Assembly: GCA_016871995.1 (NCBI GenBank)
Contig: VHBL01000003.1
Span: forward strand, 30,001-62,000
Reading direction: 5' to 3'
DNA: 32,000 nucleotides
Source: Nitrososphaerota archaeon
GTDB taxonomy: Archaea; Thermoproteota; Nitrososphaeria; Nitrososphaerales; UBA57
Shown here piece by piece: positions 15,811 through 32,000 of this stretch (position 1 is its first letter; the number at the start of each line of letters is the position of its first letter). Made by a program: the position numbers and the translations under genes. Under the pieces are notes generated by a model. It worked only from the letters and a program-made list of their open reading frames with translations, had not been told where the DNA came from and searched no databases.

Positions 15811-16350
15811 ATGGGAGATGTTAAGAAGCCAAGAAAGCAGTTTTCATCTCCAAGAAACCCTTGGAAGAGCGAAGACCTCTCTCAAGAGCTGTATCTTGTG
15901 GGAACCTATGGCCTGAGGAATAAGAGGGAACTGTGGAAGGCTAAGACAGAACTATCGAGGGTTAGGAAGCAGGCGAGGGAACTTTTGGCTGCACCTGCAG
16001 AAGTAAGAGCTAAACAAGAAGCCAAACTACTCAAATACCTTAACAGGATTGGGGTTCTAGGCGAAACCGCGACTCCAGACGATATCCTTGGTTTGAGCAT
16101 AGAGAACTTCCTAGACAGGAGGTTGCAGACTGTGGTATGGAAGAAGGGCCTTGCACGGACTCCGTTTCAGGCAAGGCAGATGATCACCCATGGGCATATC
16201 GTAATTTCAGACAGGCGTGTGACAATACCAGGCTATACAGTAAAGGGCAACGAAGATTTGGAGATTAGATTGAGACCAGGAAGCACGATGACCGTAGTTC
16301 CAGCAGAGCAGGGACCTGCTCAAGAGCAAGCTGGAGCAGCTGCAGCTTAA
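15811..16350 (+). CDS. rps4: 30S ribosomal protein uS4 (S4P)
   Basis: MGDVKKPRKQFSSPRNPW..., and the S4 RNA-binding domain LDRRLQTVVWKKGLARTPFQARQMITHGHIVISDRRVTIPGY. It starts immediately after the uS13 stop. Confidence 0.95.
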   Translation: MGDVKKPRKQFSSPRNPWKSEDLSQELYLVGTYGLRNKRELWKAKTELSRVRKQARELLAAPAEVRAKQEAKLLKYLNRIGVLGETATPDDILGLSIENFLDRRLQTVVWKKGLARTPFQARQMITHGHIVISDRRVTIPGYTVKGNEDLEIRLRPGSTMTVVPAEQGPAQEQAGAAAA

Positions 16351-16361
16351 CGGTGAGATAA

Positions 16362-16760
16362 ATGGCGGAAGAAAATAAAGAACGATGGGGAGTAGTCCAC
16401 ATCTACAGCAGCTACAACAATACCATTCTGCACGTTACAGACGTTACTGGTGCAGAAACCATAGCCTTCAGCTCTGGAGGTAGACATGTCAAAGCTGACA
16501 GATTCGAATCATCGCCTTATGCTGCAATGAAGTCTGCTCAAGCCTGTGCTGAAACGGCTAAGAAGAAAGGAATTACTGCCTTACACATAAAAGTTAGGGC
16601 AGTCGGAGGGACAGGTGCAAGAACTCCAGGTCCCGGGGCTCAAGCTGCAATTAGAGCAATTGCTAGGGCTGGCTTCAAGGTTGGGAGGATCGAAGATGTT
16701 ACCCCGATTCCCCACGACACTACAAGGAAGGCGGGCGGAAGAAGGGGCAGACGGGCTTAG
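16362..16760 (+). CDS. rps11: 30S ribosomal protein uS11 (S11P)
   Basis: [32 protein letters not shown]...SPYAAM...[31 protein letters not shown]. Confidence 0.95.
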
Positions 16761-17701
16761 GAAACTACCTCTACGGAATCCACCTTTCCATCCCCGTCTA
16801 AATCATACCCTCTTATTGCAACTGCCCAATTGTCTTCACCTTTGTATCCCTCAAGAACCTTGTCAGCAAAGTTAGCTAGTCCAATAATTGCTGATTTCGT
16901 GCCTACAGCCCTTACTCCTGCTAGGACGATTACAACCCTTGAAGGATCAAATGGGTTCTTTATTCTTGCAATTACAGCATCGCGGTCGATGTTGAAGGTT
17001 CTTCCCAAATTGTCCTTCAGTCCAGCCCAGATATTCTTTTCGTTGAACCTTATCGGAAGGTACTTATTTACATCCAATGAAAGCAAGTTTGTACCCGGCC
17101 CTCCAATGAGTATGAGGTTCTGCCTTACCTCCTTTTCCGTCTTTACGTCCACGTCAAGCTTAACGACAAAATCGCTTGGAATCTTGCATAATTGACCTAA
17201 GAAGAATGCCAGATGTACAGCATAATGACCGTCCCTTGCCATCGTCTTTTCTGGTCCGTGAGGGTCTGGGGATCCTACGACTATCCTTCCATTAAAGGCT
17301 CCATCTTGGAGAAAGGGCTCAAGAAAAGAGCGCGCATTATAGGTCAGATGCGCGCCCGCAACTGTAAACTTCCTCTCTCCTTTAGGGAGCTCCGCTGCCA
17401 CGGCTCCAAAGGGTATTGTGTAGTACCTTGCGACTGCACCCTTGACCATCTCCTCCCTCTCTACTTTTAGGAGGCCAGCCTTAACCAATCTTCTAATGTA
17501 AGAGTAAACCGTTTGTTCATGTATCCTTAACTCCCTTGCTACTTGCGCTGGATACATGGGCCTTTCTGCAAGAAGAGTAGCAATCTTCCACGAAACTGGA
17601 TTTAACAGCGGCTTCAGTCTTGATGGCTCCGATGCTACAAGAATGTCTTTGACAAGGAGTCCCTCCTTGCTTTCCCGTATGAGCAGCCGCTTTTTCTCCA
17701 C
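16757..17701 (-). CDS. wHTH (ArsR/TrmB-like) putative transcriptional regulator with an uncharacterised ~200-aa C-terminal domain
   Basis: The N-terminal part, [45 protein letters not shown], is a classic wHTH. The C-terminal part ([13 protein letters not shown]...[10 protein letters not shown]...[17 protein letters not shown]...) is not recognised. Its stop codon interlocks with the uS11 stop. Confidence 0.7.
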
Positions 17702-17847
17702 AAGACGTCTTCTGGAGAACCATTATATAATTTTTCATAATGGTCTTCCAACCTATAATCAATTTCCGTTGCGTGAAAGTTCAGCAACTGACGAATCTTG
17801 TCCCAATTATCGGCACGGTTATATGGTCGAAGGATACATGCGCGATA

Positions 17848-20178
17848 ATGAAACAACAGATTACTCCGTTGAGTCTGATTGTGGCAATTCTTCTGCTGGT
17901 TTCATCGCTGGCAACAATGTCACCACTAACACCCACACCGGTTTCTGTTGCGTACGGACAGGCCTCCGGAGTGGCAGGTGCCAACTGGGAATATGTCAAC
18001 TCCCAGCAAGTTGGTGGGAGCTTTAACCCCCAGACCCAGATTACAAAGGACAACATCCAGTATTTGGAGACAAAATGGATCTACCCCTATGTCAGGCCCC
18101 CTGTACCTCAGACGATAGGAAATGGCTATGGTTCTGGTGCAGCCCCCCTAGTGGTCGATGGTGTAGTGTACATTGCAATGAATGATAGACGAATTTTGGC
18201 ACTTGATGCTACGACTGGAAGGCTTATGTGGAACAACACATACGGAACCTCCTTCGATTCAGGCGCGCAATTAGCTAAGTATCCATGGCTATCAAGAGCA
18301 GGAGCTCACGTTCACTCAATGAACTTTTACAGAGAGAAAAACTGGCTCATTACGAGTAGCATAGGTTCATGTGAATCATACGCCGTGGATGCAAAAACAG
18401 GAAAGACCGCATGGGTTCTAACAACTGAGCAGATATGTGGGACAACGGCTGAGTTTGGAGAGCCAGCCAAGGGGATTGTGGGTTCCCTTGGGAATCAAGG
18501 TTTCATGTCTGGAGCGGGCTCCCACCCTCCTAAATTACTTGGAAACATCCTGTTCTACCCTGTTCCTGGTGGGAGTGGTTCAGGAGGAAGATCGTTTGTT
18601 ACAGCATTTGACATGAGCGATCCTGCAAACCCCAAGAGACTATACAGAACATTTACCCAGCCTCCAGCTCAAGGAGATCCTGAATGGGCGATCAAACAAT
18701 GTACAGAAGCAAATGGTAATGGCTGGTATTTTGAATATCCAAGGTACCTTGAAGGGATAAACCATCCAGCGAGGGACAGAGAACCAACGTACCTAGCAAC
18801 AAAATGCACTGACGTGAGTCCAGATGTTGTAAGGAACGATGGGATGGATCTAGTACCAGGATCTCCAACCTATGGAAAGATGCACACAGCAACCAATCAT
18901 GGCTCGGCCGTATGGGGCAACTATCCACTCGACGTTGAAACTGGGATAGTGATTCTTGGATGGGGTGATCAAGGGCCTTATCCTAACCTGACGCATAGAT
19001 ATGGGCCAGGTCTACATGGTAGCGGCTTCACTGCGCATGACGTTAGAACGGGTAAGCTCGTATGGTGGTTCAACGCGATTCCGCATGACCTCTGGGACTT
19101 TGACTGTGCTTGGGGGGGCATCCTAGGTAAAACATCTGCAGGACAGAAGATCTACATAAAAGGTTGCAAGAGTGGACAGGTCTGGGGCCTTGATGCAACA
19201 ACGGGCAAACCTGTCTGGGTATTCGACGCTCCGACGATTATCAGAAATACGGACATAAACTATGGAGTTGACAAGAACAACAACCCGAGGAGCCCTGATG
19301 CCTGTTGCAGGATGACGAAGGAACATATGGGTAAACCATGGCCTAACTATCCCAGCAAGGAGAAGATGTTCACAATCTGCTACACGCATTGCCTTGAATC
19401 CGATATAGCTTCTGATGGAAAGTATGTATACGCAGCTACGCATAGCGAGCCGAGGGTCTTAACCGTAACAAATGTGAGAGGCTTTGGCAACCAGGGTTCG
19501 GCCGAAAGACTTTACAATGTAGCCGAGAAGAAATATGCAGCTGTAGCCGGGAGATACACGGAAGCGGACATAAGGGGGCTGACATACACGGTAATCTACG
19601 CATTTGACATAAGTACAGGAAAGGAGGCGTGGAGAACTAGAATCGATGGTGTACCATTCAGAGGAGGTCTAACTGTGTCTGGCGGAGTTGTCATGGCATA
19701 TGCCACTGATGGAAATCTAAAGTTCTTTGATGCAGGAACAGGCAAAATGATTTCCGAAAGATTCTTCGGGGTACCTGTAAATGTTCAACCTGTGATAGGT
19801 GCGACAAAGGAAGGAAAGATGCGTGTCTTTATGCATGTCGGAGGTGGTGGAGGGATTACCCTCAATAATGCATTACCTATCGATGGTACGCTCGTAGCAT
19901 TCGGCCTGCCTGATAAACTACCTGAACCTGTAGTCAAAGAAATCATAAAGGAAGTTCCAAAGGAGGTAGTCAAAGAAGTGGTCAAAGAAGTGGTCAAAGA
20001 AGTGGTCAAAGAAGTGGTCAAAGAAGTACCTAAGGAGGTCATAAAGGAAGTACCTAAGGAGGTAGTCAGGGAAGTGACAGTTGAAACAATTAGTCCAGCA
20101 TCATACGCTGTTATCGGTATAGGGATCGTGCTAATAGTCATATCAGGGATACTCTTCAGCAGAAGGAAGAAAGCGTAA
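17848..20178 (+). CDS. PQQ-dependent-dehydrogenase-like 8-bladed beta-propeller protein with signal peptide, repeat stalk and C-terminal membrane anchor
   Basis: I prefer the ATG at 17848 (MKQQITPLSLIVAILLLVSSLA, signal-like) over track start 17740. Quinoprotein hallmarks are QITKDNIQYLETKW, AAPLVVDGVVYIAMNDRRILALDATTGRLMW and PHDLWDFD. The C-terminus has 13 x (V-x-K-E) and then the TM helix AVIGIGIVLIVISGILFSRRKKA. Confidence 0.8.
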   Translation: MKQQITPLSLIVAILLLVSSLATMSPLTPTPVSVAYGQASGVAGANWEYVNSQQVGGSFNPQTQITKDNIQYLETKWIYPYVRPPVPQTIGNGYGSGAAPLVVDGVVYIAMNDRRILALDATTGRLMWNNTYGTSFDSGAQLAKYPWLSRAGAHVHSMNFYREKNWLITSSIGSCESYAVDAKTGKTAWVLTTEQICGTTAEFGEPAKGIVGSLGNQGFMSGAGSHPPKLLGNILFYPVPGGSGSGGRSFVTAFDMSDPANPKRLYRTFTQPPAQGDPEWAIKQCTEANGNGWYFEYPRYLEGINHPARDREPTYLATKCTDVSPDVVRNDGMDLVPGSPTYGKMHTATNHGSAVWGNYPLDVETGIVILGWGDQGPYPNLTHRYGPGLHGSGFTAHDVRTGKLVWWFNAIPHDLWDFDCAWGGILGKTSAGQKIYIKGCKSGQVWGLDATTGKPVWVFDAPTIIRNTDINYGVDKNNNPRSPDACCRMTKEHMGKPWPNYPSKEKMFTICYTHCLESDIASDGKYVYAATHSEPRVLTVTNVRGFGNQGSAERLYNVAEKKYAAVAGRYTEADIRGLTYTVIYAFDISTGKEAWRTRIDGVPFRGGLTVSGGVVMAYATDGNLKFFDAGTGKMISERFFGVPVNVQPVIGATKEGKMRVFMHVGGGGGITLNNALPIDGTLVAFGLPDKLPEPVVKEIIKEVPKEVVKEVVKEVVKEVVKEVVKEVPKEVIKEVPKEVVREVTVETISPASYAVIGIGIVLIVISGILFSRRKKA
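19930..20085 (+). repeat. 13 tandem 12-nt coding repeats (VVKE/IIKE/VPKE...), five consecutive near-identical units
   Basis: gtagtcaaagaa, then gtggtcaaagaa x4, flanked by degenerate units. In frame with the PQQ-like CDS, encoding VVKEIIKEVPKEVVKEVVKEVVKEVVKEVVKEVPKEVIKEVPKEVVREVTVE. Confidence 0.9.
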
Positions 20179-22957: not shown

Positions 22958-23356
22958 GTGCCTCACTTGTTTAGAAAATTCTTGCTCGGGAGGACCGATA
23001 AGGAGGATCCTAGAGGAGCAACTTTCAAGGCTACTCTCAATAATAGTGATTATGCATTTGTCACAATTAGAAAAGGAGCATTAAGAGGAGGACACTATCA
23101 TGACATCGAAACAACTCAGATTATTGTATATGGAAAGATAAAGTTTCAATTCGTTGACCCGCGGACCAGAAAACAATCAGAGACTATAGGTCTTCCAATG
23201 GAGATCATCCAGATACCTGCAGGCATAGCCCATATTGCCGAGGGTCTGGAAGACTCGATGTTCATCGAACCTGCTAAGGTTGGAAAAACCATCGAATACG
23301 AACCTCAACGAAAAAGAATTAGAGACATGCTTGAACGTTCGAAAACGTTGAGATAA
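22958..23356 (+). CDS. cupin-fold protein (sugar-ketoisomerase / polysaccharide-biosynthesis cupin-like)
   Basis: GALRGGHYH...IQIPAGIAHIAEG is a two-motif cupin signature resembling WxcM/FdtA/CapF-type cupins. GTG start. Confidence 0.6.
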   Translation: MPHLFRKFLLGRTDKEDPRGATFKATLNNSDYAFVTIRKGALRGGHYHDIETTQIIVYGKIKFQFVDPRTRKQSETIGLPMEIIQIPAGIAHIAEGLEDSMFIEPAKVGKTIEYEPQRKRIRDMLERSKTLR

Positions 23357-25457: not shown

Positions 25458-26360
25458 CTATTTGGCATTAGCCAGCTCTGCAACTGTGGAAATGTTGTTC
25501 TTCAAATCTTCGTCGCTGTAGCTATGCCTCTTCTTGTGGGATTCGATGATAAGATCTGGCATCTTCTGATACCTGAGCACGTCTTTGAGAATACTCTTCA
25601 AAGGCACTCTTCCATATCCAACAAGCATGTGCTGATCTTCTGAACCGTCGTTGTCATTGACGTGCATCTCAAATACCCTTCCCGCTATATTATCTATCAA
25701 TTTGCGCTGATAATTTACATCATTTAGTTTCGTCTGGCAGTAGTATACATGACCAGAATTCAAGATCACGCCAATCTTTTTCGGAAGCACAGCAAAATCT
25801 CTCGGGAGAGCGAAAAGGTACCCCCTCTCAGGTCTGTAGTTAAAGTTCTCGATACTAAGTTGGACATCCTTGGCAGCATAATCAAGCAGTTCTTCAATAC
25901 TCCTGAGTGAGTTTGCATATGCAATTTTCAGGGGGATAAGATCAGAGGGCGTGACTGGGGAGAATTCCTCCTCCTGAGTGACGACATCTGTAGCGTATCC
26001 AGCATGAAATGAAAGCACCTTCGCACCTATATCCCTAGCAAAATCAATGCTCCTCTTAAGAGCTTCAACACTATTCTTCCTAGTTTCTTCTATTGAAGAT
26101 GCCAGATTGATATAAAAGTCTCGCGAAGGTAGCCATATGCTCTGGTGAATACTGTATTTAATTCTGTATGAGTTCTTTAGATTAAGGGCTCCCCTGACAA
26201 CTTCCTTGTATTCCGCTTTTGGCTCTGCAGCACCTATCTGGACAAATGGAGGGGATCCAGCCTCCTCGAATATTTCTACGATTTTGTGTATTTTTGTAAG
26301 TATTGGTTCTCCCGCATAGCCGTAGAAGATAGTTGAAACCCCGATCATATATTTGGACAA
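25458..26360 (-). CDS. sugar phosphate isomerase/epimerase, xylose-isomerase-like TIM barrel
   Basis: VLSFHAGY...LSIENF...GVILNSGHVY...EMHVNDNDG matches the conserved metal-ligand pattern (H, E, H, D/E) of AP-endonuclease-2/xylose-isomerase-like TIM barrels. Confidence 0.75.
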   Translation of the reverse strand: MSKYMIGVSTIFYGYAGEPILTKIHKIVEIFEEAGSPPFVQIGAAEPKAEYKEVVRGALNLKNSYRIKYSIHQSIWLPSRDFYINLASSIEETRKNSVEALKRSIDFARDIGAKVLSFHAGYATDVVTQEEEFSPVTPSDLIPLKIAYANSLRSIEELLDYAAKDVQLSIENFNYRPERGYLFALPRDFAVLPKKIGVILNSGHVYYCQTKLNDVNYQRKLIDNIAGRVFEMHVNDNDGSEDQHMLVGYGRVPLKSILKDVLRYQKMPDLIIESHKKRHSYSDEDLKNNISTVAELANAK

Positions 26361-26417
26361 AAAAGTTCACACCCTTATATGTTAGAAGAGTAAAATGCCT
26401 CATATTAGTGTGCTTGC

Positions 26418-27371
26418 ATGGTCAAAATCATCGCAGAGCTCTGCCAGAACCATAAGGGCGATATTGGCACCCTAAAGAAGATGGTATGGGAGGCTGCTGA
26501 AAATGGTGCAACTTACGCGAAAATACAGACAATCTTTGCAGATGACTTGACTAGAAGGGAGAGGTTTGAGGAAGGTACAATAGAGGGAGATGTTGTGAAA
26601 GCTATCAAAAGGCCCTATGAATCAGAATATGCTAGACTAAAGCCGATGGACCTTGACAGAAAGGCTCATGAAATTTTCCTAAAGGAATGCCAAGCTGCTG
26701 GGATAAGACCTCTGACTACAATCTTTGCAAGGGCAAGAATTCCATTTGTGCAAGAGTTGGGCTTCAAGGAAGTCAAAGTTGCTAGCTATGATTGTGCAAG
26801 TTTCCCCATGATACATGAGTTAAAGGAAAGATTCAAACATCTTTACATTTCTACTGGTGCAACTTACGATAACGAAATAGAAAAGACGACAAGGATTCTT
26901 TCTGGGCACAGTTTCTCATTTCTTCACTGCATAACCATTTACCCCACACCTTTGAATCAGCTTAACTTGGCAAGGATGGAGTATTTGAGAAAGTTTGCCA
27001 AAGAAGTCGGTTTTAGCGACCATACTCTTTTCGAGAGGGATGGTTTGAAGGCTTCTATAGCAGCAATATATTATGGTGCCCAAGTCATCGAAAGGCACTT
27101 TACCATACTTGACAAAACGATAACAAAAGACGGCCCAGTTTCTATAAATCCAACGCAGCTAAAAGAACTGGTTGAAACCTCTAAGATGAGCAGGGGCGAA
27201 CTGGAGGGCTATACGCGCAAAAACCTACCAGAGTTCGAGCAGATGATAGGTTTGACATCACGCACGCTTTCTCACGAAGAGCTATTGAACAGGGATTATT
27301 ATAGAGGAAGGTTTGCCAGCAAGGTAAACGGACAAATAATTTACAACTGGGAGGATAGGACGGTCTTTTGA
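26418..27371 (+). CDS. NeuB-family PEP-condensing sugar-acid synthase (sialic/nonulosonic acid synthase-like)
   Basis: IIAELCQNHKGDIGTLKKMVWEAAENGATYAKIQ aligns with NeuB IAEIGxNHNGxxxxAxxMIxxAxxxGADAVKFQ. Also present are ISTGATYDNEIE, LHCITIYPTP, VGFSDHT and GAQVIERHFTILDK. It is 317 aa, and the C-terminal SAF-like region looks short or degenerate. Confidence 0.8.
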   Translation: MVKIIAELCQNHKGDIGTLKKMVWEAAENGATYAKIQTIFADDLTRRERFEEGTIEGDVVKAIKRPYESEYARLKPMDLDRKAHEIFLKECQAAGIRPLTTIFARARIPFVQELGFKEVKVASYDCASFPMIHELKERFKHLYISTGATYDNEIEKTTRILSGHSFSFLHCITIYPTPLNQLNLARMEYLRKFAKEVGFSDHTLFERDGLKASIAAIYYGAQVIERHFTILDKTITKDGPVSINPTQLKELVETSKMSRGELEGYTRKNLPEFEQMIGLTSRTLSHEELLNRDYYRGRFASKVNGQIIYNWEDRTVF

Positions 27372-29368
27372 AAAAACGTGTTCTTGCAATAATACCAGCA
27401 AGGGGAGGCTCCAAATCTATTCCAAAGAAAAACATCAAGGAGATTGCTGGTAAGCCTCTCGTAGCCTTCAGTATAGCCGAAGCATTAAGGGCAAAGACAC
27501 TTTCGAGGGTCATAGTTTCTTCAGACGATGAAGAAATTCTTCAGATAGCAAGAAAATATGGGGCGGAAACTCCATTTATCCGTCCTAAGCGACTTGCAAC
27601 GGACGATGCGCTTGCAATAGACGTTATGGTTCATGCCATAAAAGAGTGTGAAAGGCAGGAAGGCCAAAGATATGATTATGCTCTAATGTTGCAACCTACT
27701 ACACCAATGCGCACGGCAGAAGATATAGATGAAGCACTAGAGAAACTTGTTTCAAGCAACGCAGATTCTGTGATAAGCGTAGTTAACGTTGGAGCCATTC
27801 ACCCACACAGGATGAAGAAGATAGTCAAGGATCAGCTGATAGACTACGCAGATGAAGGTACTGAAAACATGCCGAGGCAGAAGCTTCCTCCTATGTACAT
27901 AAGGAATGGTGCAATTTATGCTGCGAAAAGAGACAGCATAGTCAAATCAAAATCGTTCAAGGGTAAGAAATCCCTAGCATACGTGATGTCTGAAGATAGG
28001 TCTGTAAACATTGACAGTAGCCTTGATTGGGTGTTGGCAGAAACTCTGATGCAGAAGATGGACTGGAGTCATGTGAAACCGAGGAATTCTGTACAGATGC
28101 CTTGGAGTTCATGGTATGGTAACGAACTTCTTGACATAGAGCTTCCTTCAAATTGGAATGTATCAGTTGCAGCAATGAGTGATGCAGTGGAACTCTCCGA
28201 CAATGAAATCAAAAAAGCTCTGGCAAGTCCAATTGCGAGTCCTCGTCTCTCCGAACTTGCAAAGGGCAAGAAAACTGTGTGTATAGCAGTTGACGACCTG
28301 ACAAAGCCTACCGAAACTTTCAGAATACTGCCACCAGTTATTGATGAATTAAGGAAAGGCGGGATAAAGGACAATGACATTTACTTTCTTACCAGCATTG
28401 GCACGCATAGACCTCTAACAAGGGATGACATGGTAAAGAAGCTCGGGAGTGAAACTGTTGGAAAGTTTAGGGTTTACAACCATAACGCTTACCAGAACAA
28501 TGTATTGATAGGCAAAACGAGTTTTGGTACACCTGTAGAAATAGACAGGATATTTTTTGAAGCTGACCTGAAGATAGGAATCGGCACTTTGATGCCGCAT
28601 CCCTATGCTGGTTTTAGCGGCGGAGGCAAGATAGTCATGCCAGGGCTCGCTAGCATAGATTCTGTTGACATCAATCATAAACCTGTTAACGTTTCTTTGC
28701 AGGGGAGGATAGGGCAGGTTGCCGGAAACTCAAGAAGGGGAGATATAGAAGAGGCAGCAAGAATGGCTGGGTTGCACTTCATTGTAAACACACTTTCAAA
28801 TTCAAGAGGCAAGACATGTGCCGCTTTCGCTGGTAGTCCAAAGGAAGCCTTCGCAGAAGCTTCTAGACATGCCTTGAAGGTCTATTCTACAGATGTTCCT
28901 TATGGTATTGATGTTGGGATATTCAACGCTTTCCCGAGAGATACGTGGTTTCTTCTTTCGCTAAATGCGCTTAACGTTTGGGCCTCAAGGGATCCTGACA
29001 AAGAGATCGTAAGGAGAGGAGGCACGATTGTAATTATCAATGCTTGCCCAGAGGGACTAGGGGAGCACGGGCTTGTTGGAAAAGGGATGCGACAGCACGT
29101 GAGGAGGGACAAGCACGGTACATTCAAAGGGCCGCTTGAGGGGAGAAGAGTGATATTCTTCTCACCAAACGTTCATCCATCTCACGTCTATGACCACTAT
29201 CCAGAAGGGGTCTTACTCTTCAATAAATGGGATGATGTTTTAGATGAAATGAAGAAAGAATATGGTAGTGGAACTATGGCCGTCGTTTTTCCATGCGCTC
29301 CATTGCAGATGGATAAGCATGTCATAGTGCAGGAGAATTTACTGGACGACAGAATACTTGTTTCATAG
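27368..29368 (+). CDS. fusion protein: CMP-sugar-acid (acylneuraminate-type) cytidylyltransferase domain plus a LarA/DUF2088 nickel-pincer racemase/epimerase-like domain
   Basis: N-terminal domain: VLAIIPARGGSKSIPKKN, MLQPTTPMR, YIRNGAIY. C-terminal domain: PIASPRLSEL, CIAVDDLTKP, SIGTHRPLT, LMPHPYAGFSGGGKIVMPGLASIDSVDINH. It is a single ORF with no internal stop. The TTG start overlaps the NeuB-like stop (TTGA). Confidence 0.85.
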   Translation: MKKRVLAIIPARGGSKSIPKKNIKEIAGKPLVAFSIAEALRAKTLSRVIVSSDDEEILQIARKYGAETPFIRPKRLATDDALAIDVMVHAIKECERQEGQRYDYALMLQPTTPMRTAEDIDEALEKLVSSNADSVISVVNVGAIHPHRMKKIVKDQLIDYADEGTENMPRQKLPPMYIRNGAIYAAKRDSIVKSKSFKGKKSLAYVMSEDRSVNIDSSLDWVLAETLMQKMDWSHVKPRNSVQMPWSSWYGNELLDIELPSNWNVSVAAMSDAVELSDNEIKKALASPIASPRLSELAKGKKTVCIAVDDLTKPTETFRILPPVIDELRKGGIKDNDIYFLTSIGTHRPLTRDDMVKKLGSETVGKFRVYNHNAYQNNVLIGKTSFGTPVEIDRIFFEADLKIGIGTLMPHPYAGFSGGGKIVMPGLASIDSVDINHKPVNVSLQGRIGQVAGNSRRGDIEEAARMAGLHFIVNTLSNSRGKTCAAFAGSPKEAFAEASRHALKVYSTDVPYGIDVGIFNAFPRDTWFLLSLNALNVWASRDPDKEIVRRGGTIVIINACPEGLGEHGLVGKGMRQHVRRDKHGTFKGPLEGRRVIFFSPNVHPSHVYDHYPEGVLLFNKWDDVLDEMKKEYGSGTMAVVFPCAPLQMDKHVIVQENLLDDRILVS

Positions 29369-29389
29369 CGCCAAATTGAGAGATACATC

Positions 29390-30100
29390 ATGAAGATTGT
29401 CATGCTAGCTGCAGGACGCGGAGAGAGACTCGGGCCGCTGACAGACAAGATACCCAAACCATTGATCGAAGTTGCAGGTAGGCCTATTATAGAACACATC
29501 CTCGACTTGTTGATTAAACTGCCTGATGCAAAGGTCGGGATTGTAGTCGGACATTTGGGCGATCAAATAGTAAAAAGACTTGGCTCTGAATACCGTGGCA
29601 TTAAGATATCTTATATTTTTCAGGAGCAGATACTGGGCACAGGACATGCTACCCTCCTTGCGCGTAAGTTTATTGGTTCAGACCCGTTTGTTCTATATCT
29701 AGCAGACACCTATATTGTTGATGACTTGCAAAAAATAACCAAAAATCTTACCAAAGGGAAAAGTAACAGGATAGTGGTTTCAAGAGTGAGCAAAAATACG
29801 GCACTGAACAGCGGTCAGGTCATTCTCTCTGCTGGTAAAGTTGTGGACATAGTTGAAAAACCAGTTAACCTACTTTCAGATGTCGTAGCTTCGGGTATGT
29901 ACTACTTTTATCCGCAGATTCTTCAATATTTGCAACTGCTCTCTGACGGAAAACCGCTTGAGCTTACTAATGGGATCAGAGAACTTCTGAGACATAAGAA
30001 AGTAGAAGCTGTTTGGGCGAAAGCATTTCTTGACATAGGAACTCCAGCTGGGCTGAAGGCTGCCGATGATTTTCTAAAAGGGAAGATGGTTGCAGAATAG
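29390..30100 (+). CDS. sugar-1-phosphate nucleotidyltransferase, HddC (heptose-1-P guanylyltransferase)-like
   Basis: MKIVMLAAGRGERLGPLTDKIPKPLIEVAGRPIIEHIL is the canonical NTP-transferase N-terminus. At 236 aa it is HddC-sized, and it sits with hddA/gmhA/gmhB. Nucleotide specificity cannot be read from the sequence. Confidence 0.75.
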   Translation: MKIVMLAAGRGERLGPLTDKIPKPLIEVAGRPIIEHILDLLIKLPDAKVGIVVGHLGDQIVKRLGSEYRGIKISYIFQEQILGTGHATLLARKFIGSDPFVLYLADTYIVDDLQKITKNLTKGKSNRIVVSRVSKNTALNSGQVILSAGKVVDIVEKPVNLLSDVVASGMYYFYPQILQYLQLLSDGKPLELTNGIRELLRHKKVEAVWAKAFLDIGTPAGLKAADDFLKGKMVAE

Positions 30101-31085
30101 AATTAAGGTATACGCCCCTCACAGAATAAGCTACTGTGGAGGGGGGACAGACTTTCCATCATTTTACAACCAATATGGCGGTGCCGTCATAAACTGTGCT
30201 ATCAACAGGTTTTCAAAAATCTACGCCAGACCTGAGCGCGGTTCGAATATATTTCTTGAAGCAAAAAGAGTAAACGAAACATACTCGGGAAACATGTTAG
30301 AGGTAAAGAACAAGAATAAGCTTTCCATGCCGCTGAAAGCCATTCTTGACTGGAACCAACCGGTACATATGGTAATCGAGAGCGACGTTCCACCGGGAAG
30401 CGGCCTTGGGTCATCTGGAACATTGGCAGTAAATCTGATTAACACGCTTAACTTTCTGAAAAGAGGCAGCACAATCCAGCCGAGTATTCTTGCCGAACAC
30501 GCTTATCATTTTGAGGCTTATACATTGGGAAAGGCTGTTGGCAAGCAGGATCACTATGCTGCGGCGTTAGGAGGAATGAACTTCATAGAATTTGGTGCGC
30601 AAGGAGTGAAAGTTAGCCGTTTTGCTACAGAAACTGCGATTGAACTGCAGAAAAGGTGCATACTTTTCTATCTTGGGAAGACTAGAATTGCAGACATAAT
30701 TCTGAAAAGGCAGGAAAGAAATGTGGTTCAAAGAAATGAAAGTACGATTGAAGCTTTGAAGGGGATGATAACACTTACCCGCAGAATGAAAAGGTCGATA
30801 GATAAAAGGAATTTTGGAGAAATTGGATCACTACTTGAAGACGCATGGCTGCTAAAGAAAAAGTACACTACAGGTATATCAAACAAATTCATCGACAAGG
30901 TGCATACTAGAGCACTGCGATCTGGGGCTACAGGTGCAAAGGTTACTGGAGCCGGAGGTGGCGGCCATTTCTTCGTCTATGCAGAAGCAGATAGACACAG
31001 AAAAATCATAAGGAACCTTAATGATATAGGGTGCGAACATATACCGTTCAAGGTGTGCGAGAGTGGAGCTTGGGTTGAAAAGTGA
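30090..31085 (+). CDS. hddA: GHMP-family sugar kinase, D-glycero-D-manno-heptose-7-phosphate kinase (HddA)-like
   Basis: APHRISYCGGGTDFPSFYNQYGGAVINCAI (COG2605-type N-terminus), GHMP motif PPGSGLGSSG, and GAKVTGAGGGG. TTG start overlapping the upstream gene by 11 nt. Confidence 0.8.
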   Translation: MQNRIKVYAPHRISYCGGGTDFPSFYNQYGGAVINCAINRFSKIYARPERGSNIFLEAKRVNETYSGNMLEVKNKNKLSMPLKAILDWNQPVHMVIESDVPPGSGLGSSGTLAVNLINTLNFLKRGSTIQPSILAEHAYHFEAYTLGKAVGKQDHYAAALGGMNFIEFGAQGVKVSRFATETAIELQKRCILFYLGKTRIADIILKRQERNVVQRNESTIEALKGMITLTRRMKRSIDKRNFGEIGSLLEDAWLLKKKYTTGISNKFIDKVHTRALRSGATGAKVTGAGGGGHFFVYAEADRHRKIIRNLNDIGCEHIPFKVCESGAWVEK

Positions 31086-31629
31086 AACTAAGAGGTTTCT
31101 GGTAGATTCTAAGAGTGCAATAGATTCCTTCCTAAATAATCCTGCTGTTGAACGATTTATTTCAATTCTGAAAGACGCAAGACAGCGCCGAAAAAACGTG
31201 TTTGTATTCGGTAATGGAGGAAGCTCCGCTACTGCATCGCATTTTGTGTGCGACCTTCTGAAGACATCAATTGTAAAAGGCAAGCCTAGGTTCAAAGCCT
31301 ACTCGCTTACCGATAATGTACCTGTCATGACAGCTTGGTCGAATGACGTCTCTTACAGCGATATCTTTGCAGAGCAGTTGAAGAACTTTCTTGAATCAGG
31401 CGACATAGCGATAGCCATAAGCGGGAGCGGAAACTCTCCAAACGTGCTTAGAGGAACGGAATTTGCAAAAGAAAATGGCGCAGTCACAGTTGGATTGACT
31501 GGCAACTCTGGCAAATTGGCTGGAATGGTTGATATATGTATCAAAGTACCTTCTAGTAATATCCTCCTAATAGAAGGCGCACATTCTGTCCTTTTGCACT
31601 ATGTCACAGAAGTTCTACGAGAAGCATGA
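31063..31629 (+). CDS. gmhA: SIS-domain sedoheptulose-7-phosphate isomerase (GmhA)
   Basis: VFVFGNGGSSATASHFVCDL, ISGSGNSPNV and EGAHSVLLHY. 188 aa. The start may be GTG 31063 or TTG 31075, and both overlap the hddA end. Confidence 0.85.
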   Translation: MELGLKSETKRFLVDSKSAIDSFLNNPAVERFISILKDARQRRKNVFVFGNGGSSATASHFVCDLLKTSIVKGKPRFKAYSLTDNVPVMTAWSNDVSYSDIFAEQLKNFLESGDIAIAISGSGNSPNVLRGTEFAKENGAVTVGLTGNSGKLAGMVDICIKVPSSNILLIEGAHSVLLHYVTEVLREA

Positions 31630-32000
31630 TACCTGCTGTATTCGTGGATAGGGATGGAACTCTAGTAGAACAGAAGGACGGAAGTTACATTTCGTCAATA
31701 AATGAAGTCAAGTTCATAAATCAGAACGTCTATCCGCTTTTAAGCTGGTTCCAGAAGGAAGGCTTCCTTATTATCATAGTTACGAACCAAGCCGGGATAA
31801 ACAAGGGCTTGGTGACTTGGGAGCAGGTACGCAGAGTAAATGACTATGTTGTCAGAGAACTCGACAAGCACAAGGTAAAGGTAACAGATGTTTACACATG
31901 CCCCCACAGAATAGAGGAAAACTGCAACTGTAGGAAGCCTCAGCCCGGCTTGATACTTAGGGCAAGCAGAGAGCACAGAATTGACCTTGCTAACAGTGTG
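31626..32000 (+). CDS. gmhB: HAD-family D,D-heptose-1,7-bisphosphate phosphatase (GmhB), 5' partial (runs off the window end)
   Basis: Not in the ORF track. The ATG at 31626 overlaps the gmhA stop (ATGA). Translation is MIPAVFVDRDGTLVEQKDG...IIVTNQAGINKGL...CPHRIEENCNCRKPQPGLILRA. It carries the DxDGT nucleophile motif and the CxC-RKP-PG zinc/loop motif of GmhB. Confidence 0.8.
   Translation, partial: MIPAVFVDRDGTLVEQKDGSYISSINEVKFINQNVYPLLSWFQKEGFLIIIVTNQAGINKGLVTWEQVRRVNDYVVRELDKHKVKVTDVYTCPHRIEENCNCRKPQPGLILRASREHRIDLANSV

Follow-up and report, generated by a model that had tools for sequence, protein, structure and literature searches.

A predicted envelope-glycan island of a thaumarchaeon joins a NeuB-like synthase and a CMP-transferase::LarA fusion to an exchanged heptose-type cassette

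Does one tightly packed archaeal operon make one unusual sugar or two? The question is raised by a 32,000-nucleotide stretch of a Nitrososphaerota genome (the window; G000:C3:30001-62000, from a 1.55 Mb assembly, 96% complete), in which genes for a NeuB-family synthase and for a fusion of a cytidine monophosphate (CMP) transferase with a LarA domain are followed by four genes resembling those of nucleotide-heptose synthesis. We read this stretch as the plus-strand arm of an envelope-glycan island in a thaumarchaeon, put together as a mosaic from two precursor modules that do not depend on each other, and give this reading a probability of about 0.7. The nearest public loci were found in metagenome-assembled genomes of Thaumarchaeota from groundwater and sediment. 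The features concerned, in window numbering, are the following (NTP, nucleoside triphosphate; GT, glycosyltransferase).

25458-26360, minus strand: xylose-isomerase-like TIM barrel (PF01261, AP_endonuc_2, 76 bits)
26361-26417: divergent intergenic region of 57 nt, read from the sequence
26418-27371, plus strand: SAF-less NeuB-family synthase, 317 aa (PF03102, 167 bits)
27368-29368, plus strand: CMP-transferase::LarA fusion (CTP_transf_3 and Lar_N domains)
27368-28087, plus strand: CMP-transferase domain of the fusion, residues ~1-240 (PF02348, 82 bits)
28112-29368, plus strand: LarA domain of the fusion, residues ~249-666 (Lar_N, 185 bits)
29369-29389: gap of 21 nt between the fusion and the NTP-transferase
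29390-30100, plus strand: sugar-1-phosphate nucleotidyltransferase (PF00483, 101 bits)
30090-31085, plus strand: GHMP kinase, HddA-like (best NCBIfam match HddA)
31063-31629, plus strand: SIS-domain isomerase, GmhA-like (best NCBIfam matches GmhA)
31626-32072 (past the window end), plus strand: HAD-IIIA phosphatase, GmhB-like, 148 aa (GmhB models)
29341 to ~32925, plus strand: swapped-in cassette of 3.6 kb (NTP-transferase, HddA-like, GmhA-like, GmhB-like and GT2 genes)

Cassette exchange within the island

The island of G000 (locus L003) was compared by blastn with that of a relative, L070. Homology was found only over L003 466-4341 and 7927-13537, at 72-73% nucleotide identity. It extends from the TIM-barrel gene through the fusion, stops near the 3' end of the fusion gene, and resumes from the GT-C gene of the downstream operon to its methyltransferase gene. 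The 3.6-kb cassette has no counterpart in L070, which carries a 1.1-kb GT2 gene there instead. The GT2 of the cassette is 40% identical to the GT2 of L070, against 71-83% for the flanking genes and 80% for the fusion protein. A GT2 gene directly follows the fusion in L005 as well as in L070. The closest relative, L069 (85% nucleotide identity), has the cassette too, with a fusion protein 88% identical to ours. The cassette thus took the place of the ancestral GT2 gene, at a slot of the island that varies between relatives, and would have altered the glycan.

Heptose genes were not found near the fusion in L006, L007, L039, L066, L067 and L068. HddA-like genes were present in 36 of the 300 sampled genomes of the class, usually in a GHMP-SIS-HAD block and often flanked by a short-chain dehydrogenase/reductase (SDR) gene; the fusion was found in none of these 300 genomes. 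The initial annotation had called nucleotide-heptose pathways and NeuB/LarA combinations unusual in archaea, which is overstated for the heptose part. It had also proposed base composition as a test of horizontal acquisition, and this gave no sign of it: the G + C content of the cassette (0.43-0.45) and that of its third codon positions (0.39-0.52) are the same as in the flanking genes. Because of the swap, the occurrence in 36 of 300 genomes and the separation from the fusion, the heptose module appears to be a common mobile unit of the class that arrived here with its own transferase. It illustrates cleanly how archaeal surface glycans can diversify through the exchange of cassettes at a fixed slot.

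The suggestion that the operon makes two activated sugars for one glycan fits this evidence. Most likely the modules are independent, because the cassette was swapped, the NeuB module occurs without heptose genes, and heptose genes are common without the fusion.

Operon layout

All gene boundaries, overlaps and domain assignments first given for 25458-32000 were reproduced by a coordinate recheck and profile searches, and the gene junctions bear out the description of a close-packed, co-directional unit. The TTG start of the fusion overlaps the TGA stop of the NeuB-like gene (TTGA, 4 nt); it is the sole start available ahead of the conserved AIIPARGGSK motif, and the first 40 codons contain no other. 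The GHMP kinase gene overlaps the NTP-transferase gene by 11 nt, with TTG as its sole possible start. The SIS gene overlaps the kinase gene by 23 nt, and its alternative TTG start at 31075 would overlap as well. The start of the HAD gene overlaps the SIS stop (ATGA at 31626). The junction pattern is identical in L069. Compact archaeal genomes often have short gene overlaps, and those found here suggest co-translation without proving it. Both promoters are presumed to lie in the 57-nt divergent region (26361-26417).

The sequence beyond 32000, which had been marked for inspection, contains the remainder of the GmhB-like gene and then a gene for a 259-aa GT2 with a 4-nt overlap. Past the GT2 gene lies a conserved, convergent operon of six genes, three of them for glycosyltransferases (a GT-C-like membrane protein, a GT4 and a divergent GT-B) and the others for an SDR, a PIG-L deacetylase and a methyltransferase.

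The NeuB-like synthase and its TIM-barrel partner

The NeuB-like gene is the only NeuB-family gene of the genome. Placement of its product against the characterised clades had been proposed as a check, and it falls outside them, scoring well under the equivalog cut-offs of NeuB (TIGR03569, 164 vs 400 bits) and PseI (TIGR03586, 136 vs 340 bits). Aligned with the NeuB and PseI structures 2wqp and 8h2c, it retains the blocks E..NH, KxQT, K..S, STG, HC..YPTP, SDHT and ERHF, which we take to be the metal, phosphoenolpyruvate (PEP) and catalytic sites. No SAF domain was matched in this protein or among the 120 family matches listed (PF03102 only), which measure ~296-334 aa, mostly 315-325 aa; the NeuB proteins of L039 and L068 do have a SAF domain. 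Family members from Thaumarchaeota, Bathyarchaeota, Promethearchaeota, Chloroflexi and Proteobacteria share 60-69% identity, and the family is annotated at source as "general stress protein", "legionaminate synthase" or "SpsE". A metagenome scan with the protein returned only five loci.

The TIM-barrel gene adjoins the NeuB-like gene in L006, L007, L066, L067, L069, L070 and L093, and every thaumarchaeal relative whose sequence reaches far enough has the TIM-barrel, NeuB-like and fusion genes together. The only relative of the TIM-barrel protein in the PDB is the uncharacterised MJ1311. In L092, a bacterial contig of 3 Mb, one 634-aa protein (16119-18023) combines NeuB, SAF and an AP_endonuc_2 TIM barrel. 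It is a second NeuB paralogue of that genome, 29% identical to the NeuB-like protein described here, and its architecture independently ties the TIM-barrel family to NeuB chemistry. The gene for this protein adjoins a Capsule_synth gene of the KpsC/KpsS type.

The usual substrate-supplying enzymes had been reported missing from the window. This holds even genome-wide for a NeuC/LegG-type hydrolysing 2-epimerase, as PF02350 matched nothing in the 96%-complete genome; the statement overlooked the convergent operon and a further block, relocated to contig C1. The C1 block (L104 2357-7629, equal to G000 C1:614.4-619.6 kb) encodes an NTP-transferase, a nucleoside diphosphate (NDP)-sugar dehydrogenase, a BFO_1060/TagF-like GT and a CBS-fused NDP-sugar dehydrogenase, the TagF-like and CBS-fused genes lying at ~616.5-619.6 kb. 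It abuts the TIM-barrel, NeuB-like and fusion genes in L066 and L070, and is on a separate contig in G000.

The CMP-transferase::LarA fusion

The fusion begins with AIIPARGGSKSIPKKN, in which the PARGGSK motif of CTP_transf_3 is present. Its CMP-transferase domain stays under the PseF equivalog cut-off (170 vs 205.7 bits) and matches CMP-N-acetylneuraminic acid (Neu5Ac) synthetases in the PDB (E = 1e-34). For the LarA domain, the best curated model is the malate racemase LarAH6 (250 vs 500 bits), with LarA itself at 203 vs 460 bits, and the PDB match is Mar2 (E = 2e-48). With residue numbering and roles after Desguin et al. 2020 (PMC7583248), the domain retains D72, H108, H174, K184 and H200, and carries the replacements R75 to K, Q295 to L and K298 to N.

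The loss of K298 is common to the fusions (about 27 clusters, 47-100% identity) and to stand-alone homologues; in a KdsA-linked LarA subclade the residue is Ser. Stand-alone homologues without K298 (L038, L090) adjoin a KdsA-like gene, genes for GFO/IDH/MocA and shikimate-dehydrogenase-like oxidoreductases, and CTP_transf_3 genes. We rejected a glycan link for the whole LarA clade, since P0042 and P0045 (47-48% identical) stand in unrelated contexts. LarA-only homologues of at most 39% identity had no NeuB or CMP-transferase neighbours.

Apart from the fusion, the genome has no Lar_N protein; it also encodes LarB, LarC and LarE above their cut-offs (233/175, 368/22 and 318/150 bits, respectively). 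With the fusion as the only client of these three proteins, its function is directly testable by expression together with their genes. No description of the fusion came up in a search of the literature on LarA with cytidylyltransferases, NeuB, or sialic or ulosonic acids; the one paper on Thaumarchaeota treats LarA as a lactate racemase.

Recurring partners across loci

The NeuB-like family recurs beside CTP_transf_3 genes whose products are 44-54% identical to the N-terminal domain of the fusion. The other recurring partners of the family are a CBS-fused NDP-sugar dehydrogenase and a TagF-like GT-B protein. A D-2-hydroxyacid dehydrogenase is encoded as a separate gene near the NeuB-like and CTP_transf_3 genes in L092, L096 and L097. 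Fusions of a CTP_transf_3 cytidylyltransferase with 2-Hacid_dh also exist (P0113, P0117, P0119 and L036 4373-6109), their CMP-transferase domains being 40-49% identical to the one here; the L036 fusion has as its neighbour a remoter NeuB, only 25% identical to ours. The L036 cluster also holds PEP mutase, radical SAM and sulfotransferase genes. Members of the LarA clade were found beside NeuB or KdsA-like genes and CTP_transf_3 in L038, L039, L068 and L090.

Predicted chemistry of the NeuB/fusion module

Module 1 would consist of the divergent TIM barrel, the SAF-less NeuB-family synthase and the bifunctional CMP-transferase::LarA protein. We predict that the NeuB-like synthase condenses PEP with some aldose, possibly prepared by the TIM barrel, to a 3-deoxy-2-ulosonic acid, which the N-terminal domain of the fusion would activate with cytidine triphosphate. 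The LarA domain, with the nickel-pincer cofactor supplied by LarB, LarC and LarE, would then carry out a transient oxidation and reduction, a hidden-redox tailoring step that most likely epimerises the acid or its CMP derivative. The BFO_1060/TagB-like GT, adjacent in relatives and on contig C1 here, would likely transfer the product to the glycan. The NeuB-like/CMP-transferase::LarA core is a putative, uncharacterised variant of CMP-ulosonic acid biosynthesis. This core is more unusual than the heptose part: it exposes a highly conserved cross-domain NeuB-like family, and it would tie the LarA family, so far known only for small 2-hydroxy acids, to the biosynthesis of activated sugar acids.

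A wider proposal is tentative and in our view rather unlikely. The fusion would be the first nickel-pincer enzyme in nucleotide-sugar metabolism and, with its bacterial 2-hydroxyacid dehydrogenase counterparts, would represent a widespread pathway of SAF-less NeuB, CMP-transferase, hydride-transfer enzyme and CBS-fused NDP-sugar dehydrogenase. A coherent, speculative version has the CBS-fused dehydrogenase oxidise the terminal CH2OH of the CMP-ulosonic acid; the resulting ulosaric acid would offer an alpha-hydroxy-acid end for epimerisation by LarA or oxidation by the dehydrogenase.

Module 1 might also lead to a cytidine diphosphate (CDP)-linked reduced sugar acid, an outcome that we consider unlikely. 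In such a scheme the keto-deoxy phospho-acid would first undergo reduction or isomerisation and then be activated after the TarJ/TarI logic of CDP-ribitol, and the TagF-like protein would link the units into a teichoic-acid-like polymer. Such a route would account for the 2-Hacid_dh or LarA domains fused or adjacent to the cytidylyltransferase, for a Glyphos_transf-family protein that recurs in the clusters, and for some homologues that also match IspD or NTP_transf_3. However, the cytidylyltransferase domain is nearest to PseF and NeuA, which are CMP-ketoside synthetases, LarA is unable to give a net reduction, and in L092 an HAD phosphatase gene precedes the NeuB-like gene, as in the 9-phosphate routes to Kdn and Neu5Ac. 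We downgraded the CDP-linked product after the TagF-like protein of G000 proved to match the BFO_1060 family. Members of this family were genetically shown to transfer pseudaminic (Pse) or legionaminic (Leg) acid onto an N-acetylmannosaminuronic acid acceptor in Tannerella forsythia (PMC5420450), and the match therefore favours a CMP-ketoside over a CDP-polyol.

The heptose-type cassette

Module 2 is predicted to convert sedoheptulose-7-phosphate to NDP-D-glycero-alpha-D-manno-heptose with the GmhA-, HddA- and GmhB-like proteins and the nucleotidyltransferase, and it has its own GT2. For the GHMP kinase, the top NCBIfam model is HddA (142 bits, cut-off 600) and the four best PDB matches are all heptose kinases (3k85, 4usk, 4usm and 4n3o, E = 5e-38 to 2e-31). 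The top NCBIfam models of the SIS protein are all GmhA (79-97 bits, cut-offs 209-320), and its 13 best PDB matches are phosphoheptose isomerases. The best specific matches of the HAD protein are GmhB models, with the GmhB structures 3l8e and 2gmw in the PDB; it passes the model of the histidinol-phosphatase-type HAD-IIIA domain (112 vs 84 bits) and retains DxDGT, the zinc loop CPH...CxCRKP (CxH...CxC) and GDxxxD. An alpha-anomer NDP-heptose route is the likely reading of these sequence comparisons, because the best matches of kinase, SIS and HAD proteins are heptose enzymes. The heptose part would then be nothing out of the ordinary and belong to a pathway already known.

The nucleotidyltransferase is matched best by AglF, archaeal GlmU and RmlA models (137-146 bits) and fails the HddC model (58 bits, cut-off 300). 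Its PDB matches are generic, Yersinia HddC reaching 49 bits. Of the heptose set named in the initial annotation, GmhA, HddA, GmhB and a sugar-1-phosphate nucleotidyltransferase stand as best matches; the HddC specificity does not, and guanosine diphosphate (GDP) as the activating nucleotide is not borne out by the HddC score.

The substrate of the cassette could also be another sugar than heptose, as in a route for the salvage and activation of a hexose or hexosamine, with the Gmh/Hdd resemblance reflecting family membership only. We regard this as quite improbable. It would explain why all four scores are far under the equivalog cut-offs and why the nucleotidyltransferase is nearest to AglF, GlmU and RmlA. 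Nevertheless, three independent families are each matched best by heptose enzymes in both NCBIfam and the PDB, the GmhB zinc loop and HAD motifs are retained, and isomerase, GHMP kinase and HAD-IIIA phosphatase genes are syntenic across the class. We know of this combination of enzymes only from the heptose pathway.

Related gene sets were seen elsewhere. The HddA-GmhA-GmhB triads of other Nitrososphaeria (L098-L103) are often SDR-flanked and usually have no adjacent homologue of the cassette nucleotidyltransferase; given this, their activation step may use a different enzyme. A second, diverged heptose-like cluster with SIS, HAD, NTP-transferase and GHMP genes was found at ~2400-5200 of L004 (G000 contig C9, 6.7 kb), flanked by an SDR gene and a GT1-family gene. 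Its HAD and GHMP matches each switch frame twice, which points to pseudogenes or a poorly assembled short contig.

One pathway or two

Several points weigh against the reading of the island as two precursor modules with the chemistry proposed above. Co-transcription of the operon is presumed. The equivalog scores of the operon in NCBIfam are all under cut-off, and by its sequence matches the cassette nucleotidyltransferase is not specifically HddC-like. GmhA had no match, and GHMP only weak ones, in the three genomes that contain L005-L007; the completeness of these genomes, which bears on the missing matches, is unreported. The LarA clade is without the catalytic Lys298 and Gln295, which may preclude stereocentre inversion, and the alternative partner elsewhere is a 2-hydroxyacid dehydrogenase with net redox, so the LarA step might not be an epimerisation. 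To our knowledge, LarA acts only on alpha-hydroxy acids, and a 2-ulosonic acid carries an alpha-keto or ketoside carbon. Both LarA and the 2-hydroxyacid dehydrogenases act beside a carboxylate, and a ketoside gives no C2 hydride. This is the chief obstacle for the proposed chemistry, and the speculative prior oxidation of the distal CH2OH by the CBS-fused dehydrogenase would get round it. LarA homologues without K298 may run another hydride-mediated reaction in place of stereocentre inversion (PMC7583248).

The two-module reading was also set against one integrated pathway, in which heptose-7-phosphate from GmhA would be condensed with PEP by the NeuB-like protein to a C10 ulosonic acid, dephosphorylated by the HAD protein and activated by the fusion. 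The translational chaining of all genes and the missing NeuC-type supplier would suit such a pathway, and CMP-activated higher-carbon (C10) ulosonic acids in Magnetospirillum (2026 preprint) keep it chemically conceivable, but it is very improbable: the NeuB/fusion module lacks heptose genes in nearly all loci and a GmhA match in three other module-bearing genomes (L005-L007), the kinase, nucleotidyltransferase and GT2 of the cassette make a complete NDP-heptose route to a glycosyltransferase, and the NeuB-like protein keeps 80% identity whether or not a locus has the cassette, which argues for an unchanged substrate. The earlier idea that heptose feeds the NeuB-like enzyme is thus not borne out, the cassette having been swapped in with its own GT2 and most fusions having no heptose genes nearby.

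Surroundings of the island

Upstream of the operon, the initial annotation had placed glmS, a cupin and an ABC-2 exporter in the same island. The glmS and ABC-2 genes are real; we rejected them as island members, since their neighbourhood with the island is not conserved in the relatives L069 and L070. The proposed cupin (22958-23356) gave only sub-threshold matches (Cupin_1, 16 bits; Polysacc_synt_C, 25 bits), and this open reading frame (ORF) may not be a real gene, or may be a fragment.

Paralogues of a PQQ-type beta-propeller lie on either side of the island, at 17740-20178 of the window and at L003 16024-18113 (plus strand). The downstream copy is spread over two ORFs (333 and 368 aa) that overlap, suggesting a frameshift or a split gene. 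About 1 kb past the glycan island, a 212-aa ORF (L003 14590-15228, minus strand, equal to G000 C3:69589-70227) encodes an RNaseH-like domain of a phage terminase (Terminase_6C, E = 2e-11) and may be a provirus remnant.

Comparison with known systems

The CMP-nonulosonic acid pathways (NeuB/NeuA, PseI/PseF, LegI/LegF) likewise use a PEP-dependent NeuB-family synthase followed by a CTP_transf_3 cytidylyltransferase, and the likely transferase here belongs to the TagB/BFO_1060 type known from Tannerella forsythia (PMC5420450). In contrast to these pathways, the synthase is SAF-less and fails the NeuB and PseI models. No Epimerase_2 was found in the genome and no usual nonulosonic acid supply genes near the operon; in their place stand the xylose-isomerase-like TIM barrel and the LarA domain of the fusion.

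With the 2-hydroxyacid racemases and epimerases of the LarA superfamily (LarA, Mar, GntE; PMC7583248, PMC11770544), the fusion shares the Lar_N fold, Lys184, His200, His108/His174 and the presence of LarB, LarC and LarE in the genome. It differs in the replacement of Lys298 and Gln295, in the third cofactor-binding residue (R75), which is Lys, and in being fused to a cytidylyltransferase within a glycan cluster, a fusion of which the LarA papers searched make no mention.

The closest precedent for the predicted chemistry is ElaABC, for 8-epi-legionaminic acid in Acinetobacter baumannii KL49. There, a dedicated cytidylyltransferase works with a pair of NAD(P) enzymes to epimerise CMP-legionaminic acid at C8, re-setting a stereocentre of a CMP-nonulosonic acid by hydride transfer (PMC13656337). 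The pair, ElaA and ElaC, are separate NAD(P)-dependent proteins, whereas the counterpart proposed here is one nickel-pincer LarA domain in fusion with the transferase.

The cassette compares with the GDP-D-glycero-alpha-D-manno-heptose pathway of the Aneurinibacillus thermoaerophilus S-layer and the Campylobacter jejuni capsule. It differs in its sub-cut-off scores, in a nucleotidyltransferase that is not HddC-like, so that the nucleotide may not be GDP, in its archaeal host and in its short GmhB (148 aa). The four enzyme families are likewise found in one cassette, here with a glycosyltransferase attached, and the GHMP-type (HddA) kinase implies the alpha-anomer route.

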